49,540 nt of DNA, from contig JABLTI010000010.1 of assembly GCA_013166835.1 (NCBI GenBank), positions 1 through 49,540 of the forward strand. The letters run 5' to 3'. Shown here piece after piece: positions 4,757 to 31,085 of this stretch. The position numbers and the translations under genes are program-made. The number at the start of each line of letters is the position of its first letter. The first letter of the stretch is position 1. Under the pieces are notes generated by a model. The model was not told where the DNA came from. It did not search any database and saw only the letters and a list, made by a program, of their open reading frames with translations. The DNA comes from Promethearchaeati archaeon. GTDB taxonomy: Archaea; Asgardarchaeota; Heimdallarchaeia; JABLTI01.

Positions 4757-6553
4757 ATGAAATGGAAACTAGATGATAGTAAACTAGTATATGGCGTAGG
4801 TAGTAAAGATCTATACTATCTTGATATAAACAAAGAAGGAAAACTTGAACTTGTATTAGAAGGTCAAAGAATCAGTTTTGAGAAAATTATTGACACGTTT
4901 AAAGAAAAAACGAAATATGATGAAGCTTCCTTCGCAATTAGAATCCCCCAATTGATTTCATGTCAGATTAAGAAACTGATTTTAGCATTTGCTGAAGCTA
5001 GAGAGAAGTATAATTATCAAAGTAAATATTATCCAATTTACCCGATTAAAGTTAATCATTCTAAATTTATTATTGATACAGTTATCAAAACTCATCCTAC
5101 TTATGGATTTGAATCAGGAACGAAATCTGAATTCATACTTTTACTTCAAGCATTGAAAGATGAGAAGCATCGTTTGATTATGTGTAACGGTGCCAAGGAT
5201 CGAGAGTATTTGCAATCAATAAAAGAAGCAATTACTGATGGTTTTAAAGTTTGTATTTCGATTGAATCAGAACAAGAAATGCTAGATACTCTTGATGTTT
5301 TACCTCAAGAGAATTATCGGCTTGCTCTTAGAATAAAACCTTATGTGACTTTACATGGTCATTGGGGAGCTTCTAGTGGGAGGAATTCCAAATTTGGTTT
5401 AGCAATTGGTGAATTACATGATGTTATTGATGTTTTGAAGGAGAAGAAAGCAACTCATTTGCTAACTATGTTACATTCACATCCTGGTTCTCAAATTACA
5501 GATTTGGCAGGATTTGAAAGATTCGCTACTTTTGTTGCTCAATTTTACAAACTCCTCCATGAACGTGGATTCACAAATTTGAAGACAATCAATTTTGGCG
5601 GGGGTTTACCTATTGATTATGATAATCGCCTTGATGAAGATTTTATGCAAAAATATGCTGAAATTTTTGTCAAAGTGCTTTCAAAGAAATTACCTAAATT
5701 ACAGCCTACTATAATGACTGAATCTGGAAGAGCAATCACAGCTTTATCCACAATTATTATAGTAAAAACCATAGATAAATATTCAGCGTATCCCAAGACG
5801 TATTGGAATAAAACATTTCTTTCTCACTTTTACAAAGAAATAGAAGAATACCAAGATGTTAAATCAGCAAATGATGCTCTCAAGAAATGGACCTCTTGGG
5901 AAAAAAGGAAACCTCCACTGCTTTTTCTTGAAGAACTAAATGATTATGAGTTCGTTGCTCTTGAATTAAAGAGATTACTCCGTAAAAAATATTTTAGTTT
6001 TGATGATTTTGAAAAACATTTAGAGAAATCAGCAGCAAAAGCATTGTTGAAACCGGAATACTCTGTTCAAGGCAATTTTTCAGTTTTCAATTCTATAGGA
6101 GATCTTGTATTAGTCAAACAGTATTTTCCAGTTATTCCAATTAGTAGTCTACATGTGCAACCAGAAACAATTGTACGTTTATTTGATATTACATGTGATT
6201 CCGATGGAGAAGTAGCAATTTATCATCCACCAATTAGTGAGAAGAAACTAGCTACTGAGGATGATTATCAACTTACTTTTACAGAACCATTTGAACTTGG
6301 AGGATTTCCTGTTGGAGATTTAAAAGAACTAAAAGATAGTTATCTTATCATCCCTCTTGCTGGGGCTTACCAAGATATTGTTGAGTTTGATCACAACCTA
6401 CTTGGAGATCTACCAGATGTTTTAGTTGCTTTAGATGGAGCATGGTTAATTGAACTACTTAATGGAGCACAATCAATCAGTAGCATTCTAGCTGATGTTG
6501 GTTTTGATTGTGATGTTGATGATGATCCCTATTATGATAATGGTTCGAAGTGA
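4757..6553 (+). CDS. speA: Biosynthetic (bacterial-type, fold III PLP) arginine decarboxylase
   Basis: SpeA motifs in order: YPIKVN (PLP Lys), ESGTKSE, CNGAKD, SKFGL, HSHPGSQI, GGGLPIDYD, ESGRAITA, NFSVF, DITCDSDG, GAYQD. Confidence 0.85.
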   Translation: MKWKLDDSKLVYGVGSKDLYYLDINKEGKLELVLEGQRISFEKIIDTFKEKTKYDEASFAIRIPQLISCQIKKLILAFAEAREKYNYQSKYYPIYPIKVNHSKFIIDTVIKTHPTYGFESGTKSEFILLLQALKDEKHRLIMCNGAKDREYLQSIKEAITDGFKVCISIESEQEMLDTLDVLPQENYRLALRIKPYVTLHGHWGASSGRNSKFGLAIGELHDVIDVLKEKKATHLLTMLHSHPGSQITDLAGFERFATFVAQFYKLLHERGFTNLKTINFGGGLPIDYDNRLDEDFMQKYAEIFVKVLSKKLPKLQPTIMTESGRAITALSTIIIVKTIDKYSAYPKTYWNKTFLSHFYKEIEEYQDVKSANDALKKWTSWEKRKPPLLFLEELNDYEFVALELKRLLRKKYFSFDDFEKHLEKSAAKALLKPEYSVQGNFSVFNSIGDLVLVKQYFPVIPISSLHVQPETIVRLFDITCDSDGEVAIYHPPISEKKLATEDDYQLTFTEPFELGGFPVGDLKELKDSYLIIPLAGAYQDIVEFDHNLLGDLPDVLVALDGAWLIELLNGAQSISSILADVGFDCDVDDDPYYDNGSK

Positions 6554-6571
6554 AAAATAACTAGTATTTTC

Positions 6572-7057
6572 TCACTTCTTCTCTTTTATTTTTTCATAAA
6601 GACCAATAAGCTCAGTTTCCTCAATTATGTGGTCTTCCATTAATTTGATAACTTTCTTCTTTCCACTTTTCCTATCTAGTGGGAGTTTCTCATCTAAAGC
6701 GTATAATTTGAAAATGTATCTATGCTTTCCCCAAGGGGGGCAAGGACCCATATACTTGTTTTGGAATGCTCCGTTTCTCCCAACAACAGCCTTTTCTAAT
6801 TTACTTCCTTCAGCTATAGTTTTGGTGTCGGGATCCAAATGACAAATGACCCAATGAGTAAAGATCATTTTTGGGATTGGGACATCCGGATCAGTCATAA
6901 TAAGCACAAGACTTACTGCATTATTCGGAACACCTGAGATTTTAAGAGGAGGAGAAATATTTTCACCTTGGCAAGTATTTTTTTTCGGCATATCACCATT
7001 ATGTTTGAATGCAGGACTTGTTAATTTTAGTTTTCCCAGCTTTATCACCAAACACAT
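6572..7057 (-). CDS. YbhB/YbcL (PEBP/Raf kinase inhibitor-like) family protein
   Basis: 'LTSPAF', 'GENISPPL', 'DPDVP..FTHWV', 'YMGPCPPWGKHRYIFKLYALD'. The true start may be a few codons downstream. Confidence 0.9.
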   Translation of the reverse strand: MCLVIKLGKLKLTSPAFKHNGDMPKKNTCQGENISPPLKISGVPNNAVSLVLIMTDPDVPIPKMIFTHWVICHLDPDTKTIAEGSKLEKAVVGRNGAFQNKYMGPCPPWGKHRYIFKLYALDEKLPLDRKSGKKKVIKLMEDHIIEETELIGLYEKIKEKK

Positions 7058-9924: not shown

Positions 9925-9930
9925 TTTATC

Positions 9931-9962
9931 TGGGGTTAATTTCATCCCCAAAAACTTTTTAT
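9931..9962 (+). terminator. Hairpin after the methyltransferase gene
   Basis: TGGGG..CCCCA stem, then an A-run and a T-run. Confidence 0.4.
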
Positions 9963-10109
9963 TTAGCTAGATTATTTTCTAAAGTTTGTAGCAAAGTACT
10001 GATAGATTAAACTCCTAGCTAATAATATGTGGATATTACAATCGTATCTATATACGAAATGCATATTGTTACTGGGTTAAATATCGATTAAGTTATAGGA
10101 GCGCGCATA

Positions 10110-10313
10110 TTGTCGAGTAGGAAAAATAGAGATGAGTTCAATAAAGAGATAGTTGATACACTGCAGAAAATAGTTCATCCAAAGCGATTAAATAGAATTT
10201 ACGATCGAGTTATTAATTTTCAAAAATCTCAGCAACACCTTGAACATCAGAAGTACGTTTTAGGAGTAATTCAAGAATATATTAAGGAAATTGATGGTTT
10301 TCTGCAAGAATAG
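10110..10313 (+). CDS. Small hypothetical helical protein
   Basis: TTG start with AGGAG upstream; 67 aa, amphipathic, occupies an otherwise empty gap. Confidence 0.55.
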   Translation: MSSRKNRDEFNKEIVDTLQKIVHPKRLNRIYDRVINFQKSQQHLEHQKYVLGVIQEYIKEIDGFLQE

Positions 10314-10328
10314 ATTCTGTGAGGACAT

Positions 10329-12158: not shown

Positions 12159-12159
12159 T

Positions 12160-12428
12160 TTTCATTTTTCTCCAATGCTTTTTTGATTCATTTTGAATCT
12201 CAGCACTATCTCACGTTTGTTCCTGTTTCTTCCGCAATGATCGGCGCTTGCAAACCAGATCAGGTCATTTCTGACAGTTGTTTTACGCTACCAGTATTGC
12301 TTGCCATTATAGAAAGAATCGGTACTTTATCCGATGTTATTATTTTTTAGCGGAATTCGATCGTTGGTAATGAGTAATTTGTAGAGGTTACTCGCAGAGG
12401 GTAAGTCCTGTCAAGTAAGACCTCTAAC
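12160..12428 (-). ncRNA. Candidate structured 5' leader / cis-regulatory RNA
   Basis: TTTAAATA TATA-like box near 12446-12453 on the minus strand, then several stems (see findings). Confidence 0.4.
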
Positions 12429-12559
12429 TATTTATTCTCTTGATGATATTTAAAGCTTTACAAACATGTAATAATTCTGTTGACAACGATTAGAAGGTTA
12501 ATTTCTTATCGAAAGAACATATTTATTGCTAAGAATACTGCAGTTAACTGGGTATTGTT

Positions 12560-22540: not shown

Positions 22541-23035
22541 ATGAAGCCGGTAAGTTTATGCTTAGTTCAAATGGGTGACAAGGGTCTTGAGTTAGTCAAG
22601 GCACATCCCAATGTATTACCAAAACAAGTTCTCAATGAAATCACTTACAAATCGATGCCAATGGGCGCTAAACCAGGCGAGTTCTCTTCTGCAACAGTAG
22701 GCGACCTATATTACTCAAGTTATGTTTTCTCTTTACCAAGAGAAGACTCTCGAGATAATATTGCAGCCATAATTGCAGTTTTTAATAACATGAAATACAA
22801 CATCGAAGGAATTCGCAAAGTATTTTCATTCATCATTAAAGAACTCGACACTAATAAACTCTTGAAAACTGATATTGTTGAAGAAATTATGCCAAACCTG
22901 TACAAAGGATTCGATAGTGGGCATATTAAAATCAAAATCAGTTCAATTGCAACTATAGACATTGACTTTGCAGAAAAAGAAGAACCAGAAGAAAAAGATT
23001 GTACAAATGATCTTGAAGACGATCTTTGGCGATAA
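22541..23035 (+). CDS. uDENN/AVL9-like longin-domain protein (putative small-GTPase regulator)
   Basis: Pattern 'SLCLVQMGDKGLELVKAHP..LNEITYKSMPMGAKPGEF..YYSSYVFSLP..RDNIAAIIAVF' follows the uDENN layout (beta-G-beta-P, helix ending in xxPxG, three strands, helix); recognised by eye. Confidence 0.5.
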   Translation: MKPVSLCLVQMGDKGLELVKAHPNVLPKQVLNEITYKSMPMGAKPGEFSSATVGDLYYSSYVFSLPREDSRDNIAAIIAVFNNMKYNIEGIRKVFSFIIKELDTNKLLKTDIVEEIMPNLYKGFDSGHIKIKISSIATIDIDFAEKEEPEEKDCTNDLEDDLWR

Positions 23036-23053
23036 CACAGGAGAATAATTAAC

Positions 23054-23590
23054 TTGTCATTCCTAAGAAATCTATTTAGACGACGAATGAGAGAAATTGA
23101 CATTACTGTTTGTGGTCTAGCAAATGCAGGTAAAACGACAATTGTAAAGTATTTAGAAACTGGTAGATTCGTAGAGACACAACCAACTATGGGAATCAAT
23201 CGTGGAGAGACGATCCAATTCGAAAAACTTGAAATTAATATCTTTGATTTGGGTGGACAGGAAGATTTTCAGGTTTTATGGCCTGAAGTAAATGAGAAAT
23301 CGGATGGAGTTGTTTTTGTTGTAGATAAAAATGATATTATGAATTTTAACACTGCAAAAGAGACATTTCATAATATTATTGACACTCAAATTAACAAAGA
23401 TGTAGTGGTTCTAATACTATTACATAAATGCGATGTTCTGAACGGAATGGAACGAAATCGCTTCATCAAAGAATTTGGCTTATTAGAATTGCCTTACAAA
23501 TGGGCTTGTTATGAGACATCTGCTAAAACTGGCGAAAATATCTTCGAAAGTTTCAGATGGTTTTTTGAACAATTAAAGGAAGAGGTGTAA
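23054..23590 (+). CDS. Arf-family (Arf/Sar-like) small GTPase
   Basis: TTG start after AGGAG; amphipathic N-helix MSFLRNLFRR; G1 GLANAGKT, G2 PTMG, G3 FDLGGQ, switch-II Trp (LW), G4 HKCD, G5 SAK. Confidence 0.92.
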   Translation: MSFLRNLFRRRMREIDITVCGLANAGKTTIVKYLETGRFVETQPTMGINRGETIQFEKLEINIFDLGGQEDFQVLWPEVNEKSDGVVFVVDKNDIMNFNTAKETFHNIIDTQINKDVVVLILLHKCDVLNGMERNRFIKEFGLLELPYKWACYETSAKTGENIFESFRWFFEQLKEEV

Positions 23591-23594
23591 AAAA

Positions 23595-24437
23595 ATGGTA
23601 GCACTAATACAACCCGGATTAACTTGGACCTATATAGTATTTTCATGGTTAACAACAGGTCTTACTATGGGACTTGTTATAGCATTATTCAATAACTTCT
23701 TACGTAAGAAAACAACTGGAACGCTAATTCTTTTTACAGCGTATTTCATCATAGGTGCAGCTGCAATTTTAGGTGCACTTGTTTATACATTACAAGCAGC
23801 TGATTTAAATGAGATTGTACCAAGATCATTGCAAACTATTACAACCTTAGCACCGCAAATAGGATTAGTTTTGATCTATATTTTTTCATGTAGACATATC
23901 TTAAAAGATAATGAAGTTGTTAAAGCACTAACCATTATGATCGTTTCATTCATCCTAGGCCTTGTTTTCAATATATACCTCTTTGGAATTCTTGAGATTA
24001 CAAGTCCTATAAATTCTGATTTCCTTTGGGCAATCTCAACAAATAATCCAACTGCAGATCTTGAAAACATCTCAGTAAGTATTTTAGCTGTCTTCTTAGT
24101 TGTAATACAAATTTACATAAATGCCCGAATTTTCATTAGAGCCTTTGTTTTATCAAGAAGAACTGACAAAGAAATCCGAAAAAGAGGTTTGCTTTTGATT
24201 GCCTGGGGTCTAGTTATATACTTACTAGGTGGATTAGTTATTTCATTAGAAATTGCTGTTCCTTGGGCGAATGCCGCGATTCCTTTAGTTTTCTGGATGC
24301 TCAGAAAAATAATGTTTCTTACATCATATGTACTCCTTTACCTTGGCTGGATTATGCCTGATTGGTTTAGACGGCGCATACGTGGTAAAACTTGGTTTGA
24401 AATGCGATACAAAGAAATTAGCAGATTTGTACAATAA
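23595..24437 (+). CDS. Seven-transmembrane protein with basic cytoplasmic loops and a helix-8-like tail
   Basis: Seven hydrophobic segments; basic loops RKKT, RHILK, SRRTDKEIRKRG; tail 'MPDWFRRRIRG'. Confidence 0.8.
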   Translation: MVALIQPGLTWTYIVFSWLTTGLTMGLVIALFNNFLRKKTTGTLILFTAYFIIGAAAILGALVYTLQAADLNEIVPRSLQTITTLAPQIGLVLIYIFSCRHILKDNEVVKALTIMIVSFILGLVFNIYLFGILEITSPINSDFLWAISTNNPTADLENISVSILAVFLVVIQIYINARIFIRAFVLSRRTDKEIRKRGLLLIAWGLVIYLLGGLVISLEIAVPWANAAIPLVFWMLRKIMFLTSYVLLYLGWIMPDWFRRRIRGKTWFEMRYKEISRFVQ

Positions 24438-24442
24438 AAAAT

Positions 24443-24497
24443 AGAATTCTCAGTTCTTTTTTAATCTGAGAATCTCTAGAATTTTTTTTTCTTTTCT
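24443..24497 (+). terminator. Hairpin plus T-tract after the 7TM gene
   Basis: ATTCTCAG..CTGAGAAT stem followed by TTTTTTTTTCTTTTCT. Confidence 0.6.
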
Positions 24498-24743
24498 AAT
24501 AATCAAAATTTTTTCTTGTCTTGTACTCTGCATGTAAAAGTAATTAGCTTTTTATATTTTAATTTTCAACTTTGTTACGATGACTTTATATAGGAAATTG
24601 TCTGATACCTTTTCGCTCGGAAATTAACTCTTTTGAGCAGTTTTGAGTGTTGACCTAGAACTCGGTTTTTGAGTTTCAAGTATAAAAAATGAATTTGAAT
24701 TTAAGCAACCAGCAAACGGTTGTGAGATAATATGGTGATTGAA

Positions 24744-24836
24744 GTGAATAAACGAAAAGTCAATCTAAAATTTGAAGTAAAAAAAGTGCTTGAACGACCG
24801 GGAATGGAAATTCCATCAAGAATGAACTTAAAATAA
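24744..24836 (+). CDS. Small basic peptide A, MNKRKVNLKFEVKKVLERPGMEIPSRMNLK (30 aa; alternative ATG at 24732)
   Basis: Translated by hand; GGTGA RBS just before GTG 24744; similar to the next ORF. Confidence 0.5.
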   Translation: MNKRKVNLKFEVKKVLERPGMEIPSRMNLK

Positions 24837-24859
24837 GAAAATAAAACGGAGCTAATAAA

Positions 24860-24964
24860 ATGAATCAAAGAAAAAATTTAGTTAAAAAGAATATTCGCAG
24901 AGAGATTGAGAAAGCGCAAATAGAAGGTGCTCTAATCAATTATAGATTTAACATTAATAGATAA
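24860..24964 (+). CDS. Small basic peptide B, MNQRKNLVKKNIRREIEKAQIEGALINYRFNINR (34 aa)
   Basis: Translated by hand; GGAG RBS about 8 nt before the ATG; similar to peptide A. Confidence 0.55.
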   Translation: MNQRKNLVKKNIRREIEKAQIEGALINYRFNINR

Positions 24965-25153
24965 AACAGCTTTAAACAGCTCAAAACTTTGTTATGATTA
25001 ATGAAAAATTGATCATCAATCACCGCTGTAAATGCTTCGGCTCGAGTAAGAATGCTGATGGCTATTAAGGAATCATCAGAGATCAAGATATGGTGCCTGC
25101 TCTGCAGGTATCAAAACTTGATAATAAAAAAAAAGAGTGTTAATGGTTACCCA

Positions 25154-26452
25154 TTAACGATAAACTTCTACTTCTCTTATTGGAAAGCCTTCAGCTTCTA
25201 ATCTTCCTATTCTAGTCAATTCAGATAGGATACTAATTGCATTTATAGCTACGGTGACATAGATGATTATTTGTAGTACGAGGAATGTTGTATCTTGAGT
25301 CCACCACCACCAATCAACATTGTTGACTAGCCAATTGATTAATTTCAATACTTCTTGATGGAATCCATCGTATTCAAAGATTGTTCGTATTAATGAAAGC
25401 CACAATGGGATGTAGGCTGCTTTTGGAAGAACGCTGAGAAACATTAAACCTTGCTGTAGTCGTAAGAGTCTACCAACTAATGCTTGTAGGAATCTGATTA
25501 TTCCTATTGCTAGTGAGATTCCACCAAGAATTACTAACCAATATCTTAGTGGTGAGGTACCCATGAAATCAAACAATGGTAGGAAAGGTAACACTACAAG
25601 AGCAGTTCCAAAAACCATTCCAGTAATGCCTTCAGACAAGTAATTTCGTCCTAAATCACGTTTGTATTTCACAACTCTTTCAGGTCTTGTTTGTCTTTCT
25701 TCTTTGATTACTCTTGGTTCTTTGATTATGATCGTTTCTTTAACAATCTGTGGTTTTTCAGTTTTTACTACAACCATGGGAGCAGCTATAGGTAATATTG
25801 TTTCAGTTGAAGTTGGTTCTGAGACGGTTTTAACCGCAGCATCTGGTTTTATTTGAGTTGCGTCTATTGTTTCCTTTGGTCTGGTTTCAAAAAACCTTCG
25901 GACTGTTGATGGTAATCTTGATGTAAATCGACTAAAGTCATCTGGGAGATATCCTTCCTTTGACAAGTAAACGAATTGTAAAGTAATGAGAATCAAAGCA
26001 ATTGCAAAACTAACTGCGATTCCTTGAAAGAAGCCACCAAAAACTTCTCGAGCGGTTGTAGCTCCAATAATACTAAATAACATACCTATAAAATTAAAAC
26101 CTACTAATACAGCACCTACAATAATTAGGATCTTAGTATATAATGGGAATAACTCTTCAGTAATGAAGTATTTTGGTTTTCCACGTCGTTTGTATTCACC
26201 TGCAATCTTGCCGGGTGAACCCATTTGTTCTATTACTAATTCTATTTGTTCTTCTGAAGGTTCTCCACCTTCGGCTAGTTCTGTTGCACGGTCCCAAATA
26301 TGAGTCTCTAATTCCTCTAAAATATCAGCAATATTATCTTTTTCATCTTTTAACCAAAACGGTAATTTCCTTTCAACTTCATCAAGAAAAGTCTTAATCA
26401 ATTCTTGGCGTCTATCAGAATCATTATCGTAATTGTTATTTTCGTTACTCAT
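25154..26452 (-). CDS. HAAS-domain membrane protein (PadR-associated)
   Basis: N-terminal 'FLDEVERKLP..DILEELETHIWD..VIEQMGSPGKIAGEY' HAAS pattern; 2 TMs, a P/T/E-rich cytoplasmic linker, then about 4 TMs. Confidence 0.8.
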   Translation of the reverse strand: MSNENNNYDNDSDRRQELIKTFLDEVERKLPFWLKDEKDNIADILEELETHIWDRATELAEGGEPSEEQIELVIEQMGSPGKIAGEYKRRGKPKYFITEELFPLYTKILIIVGAVLVGFNFIGMLFSIIGATTAREVFGGFFQGIAVSFAIALILITLQFVYLSKEGYLPDDFSRFTSRLPSTVRRFFETRPKETIDATQIKPDAAVKTVSEPTSTETILPIAAPMVVVKTEKPQIVKETIIIKEPRVIKEERQTRPERVVKYKRDLGRNYLSEGITGMVFGTALVVLPFLPLFDFMGTSPLRYWLVILGGISLAIGIIRFLQALVGRLLRLQQGLMFLSVLPKAAYIPLWLSLIRTIFEYDGFHQEVLKLINWLVNNVDWWWWTQDTTFLVLQIIIYVTVAINAISILSELTRIGRLEAEGFPIREVEVYR

Positions 26453-26455
26453 TTT

Positions 26456-26986
26456 TTACTCACCTTGTGCTTTTATTTCTTCAATATATAACCCACATAC
26501 TTCACAGAATTTTGCGAAATCATCAAGCTTGATCTTGTTTGCACAATTTGGACAATACATGAACCTATCTTCAGGTAACACGATCTGGTAGTCCATTAAG
26601 GGGGACATCGCTTCTAATAATTTAGCGAAAAAACCAGACATATGATTTAGCAATTTTATTCCTTCCTCTGTGAGAATATAGTATTTTCTTGGGCGACCAC
26701 CGAGCTCCTTTTTATCTGAGGATAGCACTCCATCTTTCTCCATTTTTCTTAATAATGGATACAATGTTCCTTCTTCAATTATCATGACATTTTGTGTTTC
26801 TTCTTCTAGTTCCTTTAAAAGTTGGTATCCGTAGATTCCATCTCTTGGATAACGTTTGATTATTTGTAACACCGCTACTGTTGAAATCCCACGTAGAAGC
26901 TCTGACTCAAAGCTTTCCACATAGGTTCTGAAGTGATCAGTTCCGATGAGTGCTTCCGGATGAAATGTTTTTACTTTTTTTAACAC
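26456..26986 (-). CDS. PadR family transcriptional regulator with C-terminal double zinc ribbon
   Basis: 'YGYQLLKEL', 'EGTLYPLLRKMEKDG', 'RPRKYYILTEEG'; CPNC..CEVCG. Confidence 0.92.
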   Translation of the reverse strand: MLKKVKTFHPEALIGTDHFRTYVESFESELLRGISTVAVLQIIKRYPRDGIYGYQLLKELEEETQNVMIIEEGTLYPLLRKMEKDGVLSSDKKELGGRPRKYYILTEEGIKLLNHMSGFFAKLLEAMSPLMDYQIVLPEDRFMYCPNCANKIKLDDFAKFCEVCGLYIEEIKAQGE

Positions 26987-27015: not shown

Positions 27016-27048
27016 TAGTATTCTCGGAACACTATCCGAGTAATACTA
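27016..27048. promoter_or_regulatory. Inverted repeat in the padR leader; probable operator or leader hairpin
   Basis: TAGTATTCTCGGA-ACACTA-TCCGAGTAATACTA, lying between a minus-strand TTTATATA box (~27070-27077) and the padR start. Confidence 0.6.
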
Positions 27049-27143
27049 TAATACACATAGTATATCTCATATATAAAGCTAGCTTTTAGCACGGAAAAAG
27101 CATACGAGAAAAGTTTTAATGAAAAAACTAAGCAAGAAATAGT

Positions 27144-28157: not shown

Positions 28158-28340
28158 GGTAATTTAATGGTCATTTTTGCCCATTTTTCTTTTAATAAAT
28201 GACCAATCTAAACAGTAATGCAGATTAATCCAGGTTCGACATGATGAGAATATAATTCAAATTTAAATAAGATTAATAAAAACAACCAAACATATTGGTT
28301 AGAATCAGAAAAAAAATTGAAAGATATTGATGTGAAAGGT

Positions 28341-29753
28341 ATGAGTAGTTTTAAGGAAACAATTGAACAACTCGAGCCTGAGAAAATCATTGATAAAGCT
28401 CTTAAACTCGGTGCTTCTTACGTTGATGTTCGTTATCATCTTAATAACAATGAGCAGATACGAGTTGAAAACAAAACTCTCGAAGATTACAAATCACAAA
28501 GCTTTGGTGGTTTGGGTTTACGTGTAGTGCATAATGGGGCAGTTGGTTTTGCTTCAACAAGTGATTTGTCTAAAAATAGTATAGATAAAACTCTTCAAGA
28601 AGTGCTAAAATTAGCTAAATCATTTAAGAGCAATAAAGGTAATTTTGCAGATACAAAAACCGTGAAGCTTGATAAAAAAGTTTCAATGAAAATTGATCCA
28701 ATAGACATCTCTCCTGAGGAGAAAGTCAAATTACTTATTGAAACTAATAAGGCAGCGTTAATTAGTGATGAAATAAAGAATGTTATAACCATAATGGGTT
28801 CATCATTAGATTATAGATACTTCTTGTCATCCCATGGAACACAGACAACTGTTGAAGTGCCTTTAATTGGTATTGTTGAAATTTCTGTTGCAGCATCTAA
28901 TGGTAAAATGGAATCGATGATTCATGGACATGGTGCTTGCAGTGGTTTTGAATTTGCAAAGAAAAGAGACTGGAATGATTTCTCAGTAGATTTATCTGAA
29001 CTAGCTTTGCGTTCTGTGCAAGCAAAAGCTCCTCCTCCAGGAACTTATCCTGTTGTGGTTGATCAAAGACTCGTAGGAATTTTGGTTCATGAAGCTTTTG
29101 GACATGCTGCAGAAGCGGATTTAGTATTTACTGGAACTTCTACTCTTAAGGATCGTTTAGGAGAACAATTAGCAAGTGAACAAGTTACAGTCATCGATGA
29201 AGGAGTAGTTGACGGTGGCTTTTATATGCCTACTGATGACGAAGGTACTCCAAAAGGAAAGACTGTTATTTTAGATAAGGGTGTGCTAAAAGGCTACATG
29301 CATGATAGAAACTCAGCCCATGTATTGTCAGTAACTCCAACTGGCAATTCAAGAGCACAAGATTTTGAAAACCAACCACAAGTTCGTATGACTAATACCT
29401 ACATAGATGATGGAAAATATGAATTCGATGAATTACTCGAAGGAATAAAAGAAGGCATCTATATCAAAAATAAAGGATCAGGTGGAGGTCAAGTCGAAGT
29501 TGGAGCTGGTACATTTACTTTTAACGGAGGAGAAAGCATCATGATACGAAATGGTGAATTAGCAGAACCTGTTAGAGGCGTTGTTATCAGTGGAGCCATT
29601 CTTGATACTTTAAAGACAGTTGATGCCGTTGGTAATGATCTATCAATTTCAACTAGCTTTTTTGGCGGTTGTGGTAAGGGAGGACAAACTGCGAAATGTG
29701 GTTTCGGTGGTCCTCACATCAGAGTACAAAAAATGACAGTTGGAGGAAGATGA
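28341..29753 (+). CDS. tldD: TldD metalloprotease subunit
   Basis: HEAFGHAAEAD, 'DDEGTP', 'TGNSRA', 'RMTNTY', 'GCGKGGQ'; ATG 28341 preferred to TTG 28317. Confidence 0.92.
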   Translation: MSSFKETIEQLEPEKIIDKALKLGASYVDVRYHLNNNEQIRVENKTLEDYKSQSFGGLGLRVVHNGAVGFASTSDLSKNSIDKTLQEVLKLAKSFKSNKGNFADTKTVKLDKKVSMKIDPIDISPEEKVKLLIETNKAALISDEIKNVITIMGSSLDYRYFLSSHGTQTTVEVPLIGIVEISVAASNGKMESMIHGHGACSGFEFAKKRDWNDFSVDLSELALRSVQAKAPPPGTYPVVVDQRLVGILVHEAFGHAAEADLVFTGTSTLKDRLGEQLASEQVTVIDEGVVDGGFYMPTDDEGTPKGKTVILDKGVLKGYMHDRNSAHVLSVTPTGNSRAQDFENQPQVRMTNTYIDDGKYEFDELLEGIKEGIYIKNKGSGGGQVEVGAGTFTFNGGESIMIRNGELAEPVRGVVISGAILDTLKTVDAVGNDLSISTSFFGGCGKGGQTAKCGFGGPHIRVQKMTVGGR

Positions 29754-29756
29754 AAA

Positions 29757-31085
29757 ATGGATTTTGGTGAACTAGCAGTTAAGAAAGCATTAAAAATTGG
29801 TGCTGATGAAGCAGAAGTCTATATTCTTAAAAAGAATATTACAAAAGTCGATTTTTCTTCTGAAATTGAAATGTTCAAGAATACTGATACTCTAGGTATC
29901 GGTGTGAGAGTTGCTGTTGGAAAGAAACTAGGTCTTCATGCAACATCTATTCTTACAGAAGATGAAGTTCTTGGGGCAGTCCAAAAAGCTGTTAATATTG
30001 CAAAAGCTACCCCCGAAGATCCAAATTGGAATGGCTTTAATAAAAAATTTGGAGAAACATCTGTTACAAAGAATTATGATAAAACTCTCGAGAGTTTAGA
30101 ATATGAGGCTATCATAGATAAAATAATTGGTGGCATCAATAGGGCAACTGAAAAAGATAGAAAAGTAAAGGTTACTCGAGGAACTTTGTACTTGAATCGT
30201 GGGGAAATATCAATTACTAATAACTACAATGATTCTCTCACTTACAAAGGAACAGCAATTTCTTCATACATGATGACAAAAGCTATAGAAGGTGGCGAAA
30301 GCACTGGAGCTGAAGGTCAAGATGTACGTTTCTGGAAAGACTTAGATTATAATAAAATCGCAGACTATGCAGCAGAACAAGCTCTAAAACACCTAAAAGC
30401 AAAAACAATTGAAAGTACCAAATTGCCAGTAATTATGAAAAACAAATTCGCTTGTTTCATGTTTGGAATGATGATTGGAAGCAATGTAAATGCCGAGAAC
30501 ATTCAGAAAGGTCGTTCAACCTTTGCTCCGAAATTAAACACACAAATTGCAGATGAAAGAATAACAATAACTGACGACGGAACCATGCCTGGAGGATACA
30601 GAACACGACCATTTGATAGTGAAGGTCATCCTACCCAGAAAACAAGTTTAATTGAGAAAGGAGTTCTCAAGAATTTTCTATTTGATAATTATAGAGCAAT
30701 GAAAGCAGATACAAAATCAACAGGTAATGCTCGTAGAGATTACTTCCAGATCCCCGCTCCTTCTTTGAATAACTTCATAATAAAACCAGGAACAACAAAT
30801 TTAGAAGATATGATTAAAGATACAAAGAAAGGCTTCTTCATTGACAGAACTATTGGCGAATGGCTTTCCAGACCAACAAGTGGTGAAATGAATGCTACTG
30901 TAACACATGGATTTCTAATCGAAAATGGCGAACTTACTCAACCAGTAAACAATGTAATTGTTGCTGGTAACTTCTTCGAAATTCTCAAAGATAAAATTGA
31001 TACTATTGGTAGCGATGTTGCAAACAATGATCACACGTATAGTCCGGCAATAAAAATTTCAGAAATGACTATTGCTGGAAAATAG
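29757..31085 (+). CDS. pmbA: TldE/PmbA subunit
   Basis: 'GADEAEVY', 'PFDSEG', 'STGNA', no HExxH; 3 nt after tldD. Confidence 0.9.
   Translation: MDFGELAVKKALKIGADEAEVYILKKNITKVDFSSEIEMFKNTDTLGIGVRVAVGKKLGLHATSILTEDEVLGAVQKAVNIAKATPEDPNWNGFNKKFGETSVTKNYDKTLESLEYEAIIDKIIGGINRATEKDRKVKVTRGTLYLNRGEISITNNYNDSLTYKGTAISSYMMTKAIEGGESTGAEGQDVRFWKDLDYNKIADYAAEQALKHLKAKTIESTKLPVIMKNKFACFMFGMMIGSNVNAENIQKGRSTFAPKLNTQIADERITITDDGTMPGGYRTRPFDSEGHPTQKTSLIEKGVLKNFLFDNYRAMKADTKSTGNARRDYFQIPAPSLNNFIIKPGTTNLEDMIKDTKKGFFIDRTIGEWLSRPTSGEMNATVTHGFLIENGELTQPVNNVIVAGNFFEILKDKIDTIGSDVANNDHTYSPAIKISEMTIAGK

Follow-up and report, generated by a model that had tools for sequence, protein, structure and literature searches.

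Two conserved basic microprotein genes, probably a bicistronic unit, between membrane signalling modules of a Heimdall-type Asgard archaeon

A 716-nt spacer (24438-25153) in the genome of a Heimdall-type archaeon probably holds a separate, conserved bicistronic unit that would make two cytosolic, basic and helical microproteins. Because the pair is kept in related Heimdall-group archaea, the two open reading frames (ORFs) are very probably genuine genes, which to judge from their sequences belong to an undescribed family. They were analysed within a stretch of 49,540 nucleotides, called here the window, which is AT-rich as a whole (33.4% G+C). Both lie on the + strand. ORF1 can be read in a long form of 34 aa, from ATG 24732 to a TAA (24732-24836), and in a conserved form of 30 aa that starts at the in-frame GTG 24744 (24744-24836). 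ORF2 runs from ATG to TAA at 24860-24964 and encodes 34 aa. The gap of 23 nt between them contains ORF2's own ribosome-binding site. Each ORF is below about 70 aa and has a start codon and a ribosome-binding site, as translated archaeal small proteins do. The preliminary description of this stretch had pointed out both frames, a GGTGA and a GGAG in front of them and an upstream TTTATATA box, and all of these are present at the positions it gave. JGI labels the collection sequences P0061 and P0053 'hypothetical protein', and the ESM Atlas contains ORF2 letter for letter, so at least some pipelines call these ORFs.

The spacer separates a + strand gene group from a convergent gene pair. The group consists of the genes for a 164-aa protein, an Arf-family GTPase and a 7TM protein, the last of which (23595-24437, + strand, 280 aa) abuts the spacer. 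Neither the 164-aa protein nor the 7TM protein belongs to a Pfam family, and the trio (22541-24437) looks like a membrane-receptor/GTPase module. Homologues of the 7TM protein carry the source labels Heimdallarchaeota or Asgard archaea. On the other side, a convergent HAAS membrane gene on the minus strand (25154-26452; Pfam HAAS, 32.8 bits) is followed by a PadR regulator gene (Pfam PadR, 67.7 bits), and together these form a HAAS/PadR pair at 25154-26986. TldD/E homologues are encoded at 28317-31085, i.e. 3.35 kb downstream of the ORF pair and separated from it by three genes in other orientations. Three further intergenic ORFs of 30–37 codons occur in the window, two on the minus strand in the spacer 9925-10328 (starts 10178 and 10064) and one on the + strand in the spacer 12159-12559 (start 12237).

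A genome collection scanned with an alignment of 27 7TM sequences yielded 12 loci. This collection is one without the window's own species and without relatives whose 7TM protein is 70–81% identical, and in its closest loci the 7TM protein is 47–51% identical to that of the window. The trio is kept in three of these loci (L001, L002 and L003, at about 4900-6860), with identities across the three of 69–76% for the 164-aa protein, 70–74% for the GTPase and 47–52% for the 7TM protein. Only L001 and L002 of the 12 are collinear with the window, in the common order ABC transporter, 164-aa protein, Arf GTPase and 7TM protein, then convergent HAAS, PadR and phosphoesterase. The protein identities to the window are 43% for HAAS, 50% for 7TM, 70% for the GTPase, 73% for PadR and 75% for the 164-aa protein. 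In both spacers two + strand small ORFs are found at the place equivalent to that in the window, and tblastn of ORF1 against all 12 loci, a search that had been suggested for Asgard genomes, gives matches precisely at that spot (E-values 5e-5 and 0.003). Both ORFs, their start positions, both ribosome-binding sites (that of ORF2 weakened in L002) and the BRE/TATA box are kept in the two loci, and the remaining spacer is mostly scrambled in the three-way DNA alignment. The codon that aligns with the window's GTG 24744 is an ATG in L001 and L002, where it opens ORF1 and is preceded by GGTGA at a distance of 5 nt. It is hence the 30-aa product that is conserved, and the GTG start with GGTGA as ribosome-binding site, initially proposed from the window, is matched by the ATG and the spacing in these distant relatives. 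That the two peptides are real microproteins was also part of the preliminary description; it is well supported, the frames being conserved in relatives. L001 and L002 are 82.5% identical to each other (blastn, 7005 nt) and therefore count as little more than one comparison; the independent DNA comparisons are two, window clade versus L001/L002 clade.

The other ten loci lack the pair. L003, with a 7TM protein 47% identical and the trio present, has a different downstream gene and no small-ORF pair, which is likewise absent from the nine more distant 7TM loci. Searches with HMMs of both families yielded no extra copies, either elsewhere in the window or among these ten loci, and no analogous small basic ORFs with a Shine-Dalgarno (SD) motif and high charge are located behind those ten 7TM genes. 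In six of the nine distant loci (L004, L005, L007, L008, L009 and L011), an ORF of 285–301 aa, oriented like the 7TM homologue, overlaps it or begins no more than 12 nt behind it. This partner gene of about 290 aa is a different conserved gene, absent from the window.

Relatives of both ORFs were also found in protein collections. It should be kept in mind that members from such collections were ascertained as open frames, and relatives with broken frames are invisible there. Among 1.84 billion representatives, the ORF1 profile had four matches at E-values of 0.001 or below, three of them true small relatives sharing the same core: P0053 (34 aa), P0054 (29 aa) and P0055 (51 aa, with an N-terminal extension). 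The matches in this library have E-values of 1.5e-10 to 6.5e-5. The fourth match, a 142-aa repeat protein, was regarded as false. A word-indexed collection gave four ORF1 relatives among 34 candidates, adding P0066, and nine ORF2 relatives among 15 candidates; the latter are all 34 aa long and come from 28 contigs in total, with the ORF2 sequences of the window and of L002 among them. The ORF1 family thus comprises seven sequences (window, P0066, P0053, P0054, P0055, L001 and L002), with K3, K5, E11, K14, L16 and G20 as invariant residues. ORF2 has exactly 34 codons in all ten known sequences, and within the window's clade its residues 9–34 are nearly invariant and residues 2–8 variable. No ORF1 match was present in the ESM Atlas, where the best ORF2 score was 0.79, under the meaningful level, and no usable relatives were obtained. 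As far as seen, both families are confined to one group of Heimdall-type Asgard archaea.

The pattern of substitutions inside the ORFs is, as read from these alignments, that of coding sequence. Residues that are invariant in the window, L001 and L002 are written with differing codons: Pro as CCG, CCA or CCT, Leu as CTT or CTG, Ile as ATT, ATC or ATA, Lys as AAA or AAG, Ala as GCG or GCA, Glu as GAA or GAG and Asn as AAT or AAC, and the stop as TAA or TAG. By BLOSUM score, the annotated frame is the best of six for both ORFs (ORF1, 49/64 versus 34/44 for the next; ORF2, 41/38 versus 25/18), with the codon-matched antisense frame ranking second in similarity, and for ORF2 it is the sole frame open in all three genomes. 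When the substitutions between the window and L001/L002 were placed at random, the observed protein score was reached in 0.01–0.46% of 20000 trials. The same test between L001 and L002 gave 0.24% for ORF2 and was not significant for ORF1 (P 0.25), where there are 8 differences only; synonymous to non-synonymous codon changes between these two loci are 2:4 in ORF1 and 4:7 in ORF2. Between the clades the DNA of ORF2 is 47% identical, about as much as unrelated AT-rich DNA, yet 34 codons are present in both, and the fixed-register protein similarity has a shuffle P of 0.0003–0.0007.

The signals around the ORFs would fit a transcription unit made up of a promoter, a leader of about 130 nt, ORF1, the 23-nt gap, ORF2 and a 3' hairpin shared with the convergent gene. 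An archaeal-type promoter is located at 24578-24593 on the + strand, with a BRE-like CGATGAC followed by the TATA box at 24585-24592, and the block CGATGnCTTTAwATAG is kept in the window, L001 and L002. The TATA box precedes the ORF1 start by 159 nt in the window and by 164 nt in both other loci. From the usual TATA-to-start distance, transcription is predicted to begin at about 24615. The ORF1 SD-like GGTGA (24734-24738, + strand) lies 5 nt before GTG 24744 and is invariant in all three genomes, with the same spacing to the aligned start codon; the ORF2 GGAG (24848-24851, + strand), 8 nt before ATG 24860, is unchanged in L001 and reads GGAA, a weaker form, in L002. SD-like motifs are in use in this genome, since such words precede 23 of 40 long ORFs in the window versus 20% of random 20-mers. 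Fusion of ORF1 and ORF2 by frameshift was considered and rejected, the frame offset being +2 in the window versus +1 in L001.

The most conserved non-coding block of the spacer is found at 24649-24670 on the + strand (GTTGACCT..AACTCGGTTTTT), a short hairpin followed by T5. Apart from 2 nt inserted in the window, its 20–22 nt are identical in the window, L001 and L002; the window has a single copy of AACTCGGTTTTT, and words like GAGTTGACC are not enriched there. The block is positioned in the 5' leader, or else just 5' of a second TATA-like stretch (24681-24690), and it may serve as an operator, a leader RNA element or a pause/termination site. Two repeats are located in the same region. A 14-nt direct repeat, AACTTTGTTAYGAT (24568-24581 and 24985-24998), flanks the small-ORF unit just 5' of the TATA box and just 3' of ORF2, and a 13-nt inverted repeat (24631-24643 and 24974-24986) pairs the leader with the region 3' of ORF2; neither is obviously conserved in L001 or L002.

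At the other end, between the small-ORF unit and the HAAS gene, a hairpin at 25082-25122, to which no strand is assigned, has the core CCTGC-nnn-GCAGG at 25096-25108. Its consensus fold comprises 11 pairs, with pairing-keeping one-sided changes at four and a both-sided change at one, and T-runs come after it on the + strand in L001 and L002. The three-way DNA alignment also shows conservation of a hairpin, CCTGCnnnGCAGG, close to where the convergent gene ends. The 25082-25122 structure is probably a 3'-end or terminator structure shared with the convergent gene. A second hairpin (25139-25158) is terminator-like with a T-run for the minus-strand HAAS gene and overlaps the HAAS stop codon.

In the divergent PadR/phosphoesterase promoter region, nested palindromes are present at 27016-27078 (AGTATT..AATACT; ATACTATA..TATAGTAT, then CATATATAAAG). 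These palindromes and CATATATAAAG are largely conserved in L001 and L002, and they are probably the PadR operator and TATA box. Nothing that corresponds to the conserved palindrome (27016-27065) is present in front of the small ORFs, the sole common 9-nt word being the TATA box, and an operator common to the PadR and small-ORF promoters was therefore rejected. Since the TldD/E link is not conserved either, no neighbour is tied to the pair beyond adjacency in two related genomes.

The strongest rival to a protein-coding unit is a conserved RNA of about 500 nt, non-coding or regulatory, that would extend from the TATA box as far as the 3' hairpin, with the frames as by-products of A-rich sequence, or a dual-function transcript that acts mainly as RNA. 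We consider this unlikely, but several features speak in its favour. The whole spacer is conserved between L001 and L002 like coding DNA (84% identity versus a locus average of 82.5%), so constraint is not confined to the ORFs, and its most conserved element (24649-24670) is non-coding. None of 100 shuffles folds as well as the putative 526-nt transcript (z −2.76), base changes in the 3' hairpin preserve its pairing, and the leader and 3' tail are long for ORFs so tiny. However, the leader alone is not unusually stable versus shuffles (z −0.31), and its consensus fold has five compensatory-change pairs but many broken ones. Nowhere in the window is the gathering score of an Rfam 15 family attained, the best of seven sub-threshold matches in 24400-25200 scoring 19.7 bits versus a gathering score of 50. 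No tRNA was found with ARAGORN. A C/D-box sRNA in the leader was discarded as a candidate, the Rfam snoRNA matches being sub-threshold (18.8 and 17.5 bits versus 50) and the sequence having no box C. It also speaks against an RNA that the changes within the ORFs follow codon logic, with synonymous variation at invariant residues, the annotated frame scoring best and placement P values of 0.0001–0.005. In addition, with so low an identity of ORF2 DNA between clades, not much is left that could be conserved as RNA, and still ORF2 retains its length, start, SD motif, charge and helix seam. An extra RNA-level role, or a dual-function RNA, may exist beside coding.

That the frames are functionless and open by chance in an AT-rich spacer seems very improbable. 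Judged inside the window alone, their existence is no better than chance: the spacer has two ORFs of at least 28 codons versus a mean of 2.5 in 2000 shuffles, and at least two in 75% of the shuffles. The two peptides also share no BLASTP similarity. Chance does not account for frames, starts and SD motifs conserved where the flanking proteins are only 43–75% identical, for an ORF2 of the same length in every known sequence, or for the matches to ORF1 in the 1.84-billion-protein library. It is hardly more credible that the real gene is antisense and encodes a hydrophobic F/L-rich peptide, e.g. a small membrane toxin, to which the + strand would be antisense. Such frames do exist in the window (24868-24701, 55 aa), in L001 (7087-7335) and in L002 (7100-7357), the latter two with 82–85 aa, and in each of the three genomes a minus frame stays open over the ORF1 region, with the second-best score (34/44 versus 49/64). 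A T-rich antisense of an A-rich coding strand is, however, expected to be open and hydrophobic. The minus ORFs vary in frame, length and start between genomes, the minus frame across ORF2 has two stops in the window, and it is the + strand that the conserved SD motifs, start codons and TATA box serve. Toxins had been among the suggested roles, but the + strand peptides themselves are not membrane toxins, such as those like type I toxins, because both are hydrophilic, with a net charge of +5/+6 and no hydrophobic run.

Precursor or ligand peptides were also among the early suggestions. The pair could then encode RiPP- or microcin-like precursors processed by TldD/TldE, or secreted ligands of the 7TM protein, in view of the TldD/E homologues 3.35 kb downstream and of the position of the pair behind the 7TM gene. 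Both roles are highly improbable: in L001 and L002 no TldD/E homologue was found over 5.5 kb downstream of the pair, in the window three differently oriented genes intervene, the peptides are highly charged helices with no Cys, no Gly/Ser-rich or other precursor-like core and no signal sequence, and the other ten 7TM loci (the orthologue L003 and nine distant homologues) are without such ORFs.

We thus favour a protein-coding unit, in which the translation products of both ORFs would be cytosolic helical microproteins, free of cysteine and strongly basic (+5/+6). The net charge is +6 for ORF1 as well as ORF2 of the window and +5 or +6 in 16 of 17 family sequences, the exception being the N-terminally extended P0055. 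Cys is absent from the same number, the two Cys of P0055 being located in its N-terminal extension. AlphaFold2 models ORF1 as a helix at residues 3–16 followed by the conserved P-G turn (pLDDT 70.6) and ORF2 as a single helix at residues 2–33 (pLDDT 83.9). A seam with 3-4 spacing, I12, I16, A19, S/G23, I/F/L26, F/I30 and N33, runs along ORF2 and is kept in 10 of 10 sequences. Known families were of no help. Neither ORF matches a Pfam family at E-values up to 0.01 or an NCBIfam family up to 1; PADLOC gave no match and PHROGs one (E-value 0.088), with no curated cut-off reached. A sequence-profile search of the PDB yielded one match for ORF1 (a designed nanoparticle, E-value 0.41) and none for ORF2 up to 10. 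The only Pfam match up to 10 (13–15 bits) is HBS1_N (PF08938), to which three of four ORF2 sequences tested show a weak match over residues 1–33 (E-values 0.04–0.1, 13.4–14.6 bits). This falls well short of the 26.4-bit gathering score, takes in positions 26–62 of the 78 in the model and is absent for the L002 form, and kinship of ORF2 with HBS1_N was treated as chance.

From the sequence pattern and the single-chain models, we tentatively suggest that the microproteins might act by helix–helix packing. The ORF2 seam, with its heptad-like spacing and small residues A19 and S23 at the centre, would dock onto ORF1 or onto a helix of some larger partner, and the Lys/Arg-rich N-terminal ends would contact an acidic surface, be it nucleic acid, membrane lipid or protein. 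Acting in this way, the two would be similar to other small proteins of prokaryotes by which a larger complex is modulated. Nucleic-acid binding, one of the roles initially suggested, may be among their functions. More specific proposals, namely a minimal basic-helix heterodimer that binds the 24649-24670 block of its own promoter or leader or another nucleic acid, or small subunits of the Arf-GTPase/7TM or HAAS/PadR modules, are decidedly speculative and improbable. If the heterodimer reading were true, the spacer would encode a self-contained microprotein regulator, of a kind undescribed in archaea, in the lineage closest to eukaryotes.

The two ORFs had further been described as paralogous. 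The extended families do align over the N-terminal 22 residues, as in the comparison of P0054 with P0060; for the window pair alone, similarity is not significant. The seven identities in an ungapped alignment of 22 residues, on which that claim was built, were reproduced, and this number is reached in the N-terminal register by 0.46% of 5000 shuffles, the register having been picked after the sequences had been seen. The best ungapped local score of the two has a P of 0.022 against composition-kept shuffles, and BLASTP gives no alignment between them up to an E-value of 100. With three sequences on each side, hhalign assigned a probability of 6%; with seven and ten sequences it found the N-terminal register with a P of 0.0018 but only 14.7% probability, and cross-HMM matches between the families were not significant. 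P0054 of the ORF1 family and P0060 of the ORF2 family share 11 of 22 residues in an ungapped alignment (E-value 2e-6), a pair picked by eye among 7 x 10 = 70. In the fixed N-terminal register, 56 of the 70 pairs, which are not independent of each other, have a shuffle P of 0.01 or below, and all 14 pairs above this value involve ORF2 of L001 or L002. A common origin by tandem duplication is plausible from these comparisons, though not proven, and we rate it as somewhat better than even; alternatively, two basic amphipathic helices may have converged.

No part of archaeal genomes is charted as poorly as their small proteins, and full-text literature searches, judged by titles and abstracts, found no paper on those of Asgard archaea. 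The pair provides a clean example: genes of about 30 residues, with their own promoter and ribosome-binding sites, kept where ordinary proteins are about 50% identical and flanked on either side by a membrane signalling module of a Heimdall-type archaeon. Genes of fewer than 35 codons can thus be recognised from synteny alone. The biological weight of this pair rests entirely on its function.

Among very small basic proteins, the ribosomal protein eL41 has about 30 residues and is helical and positively charged, with a charge density much higher than that of the microprotein pair. Neither ORF matches the ribosomal protein models of Pfam or NCBIfam even at E-values up to 10, and unlike eL41 the pair is confined to one clade and hence not universal. 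With regard to the immediate convergent neighbour, the dyad of HAAS and a PadR-like wHTH protein has been proposed as an alternative to two-component signalling (PMC11237479). This dyad is kept beside the pair in L001 and L002, and small ORFs are not part of it as described in that proposal. A further likeness is to small proteins of Methanosarcina mazei, an archaeon for which 314 unannotated translated small ORFs were reported (PMC11456600), and in particular to sP26 (23 aa, acting on glutamine synthetase) and MtrR, described as small proteins that modulate a larger enzyme (bioRxiv 10.1101/2020.05.06.080432, PMC13370731). Like these as they are described there, the microproteins would be tiny cytosolic proteins with their own small ORFs, missed or barely noticed by annotation, and their proposed action, the binding of a larger partner, would be similar; the likeness is one of description. 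The host here is an Asgard archaeon and not a methanogen, and the pair is known from sequence, whereas sP26 and MtrR are reported with experimental support. Finally, in contrast to sP26 and MtrR, two probably paralogous ORFs are arranged here in tandem.
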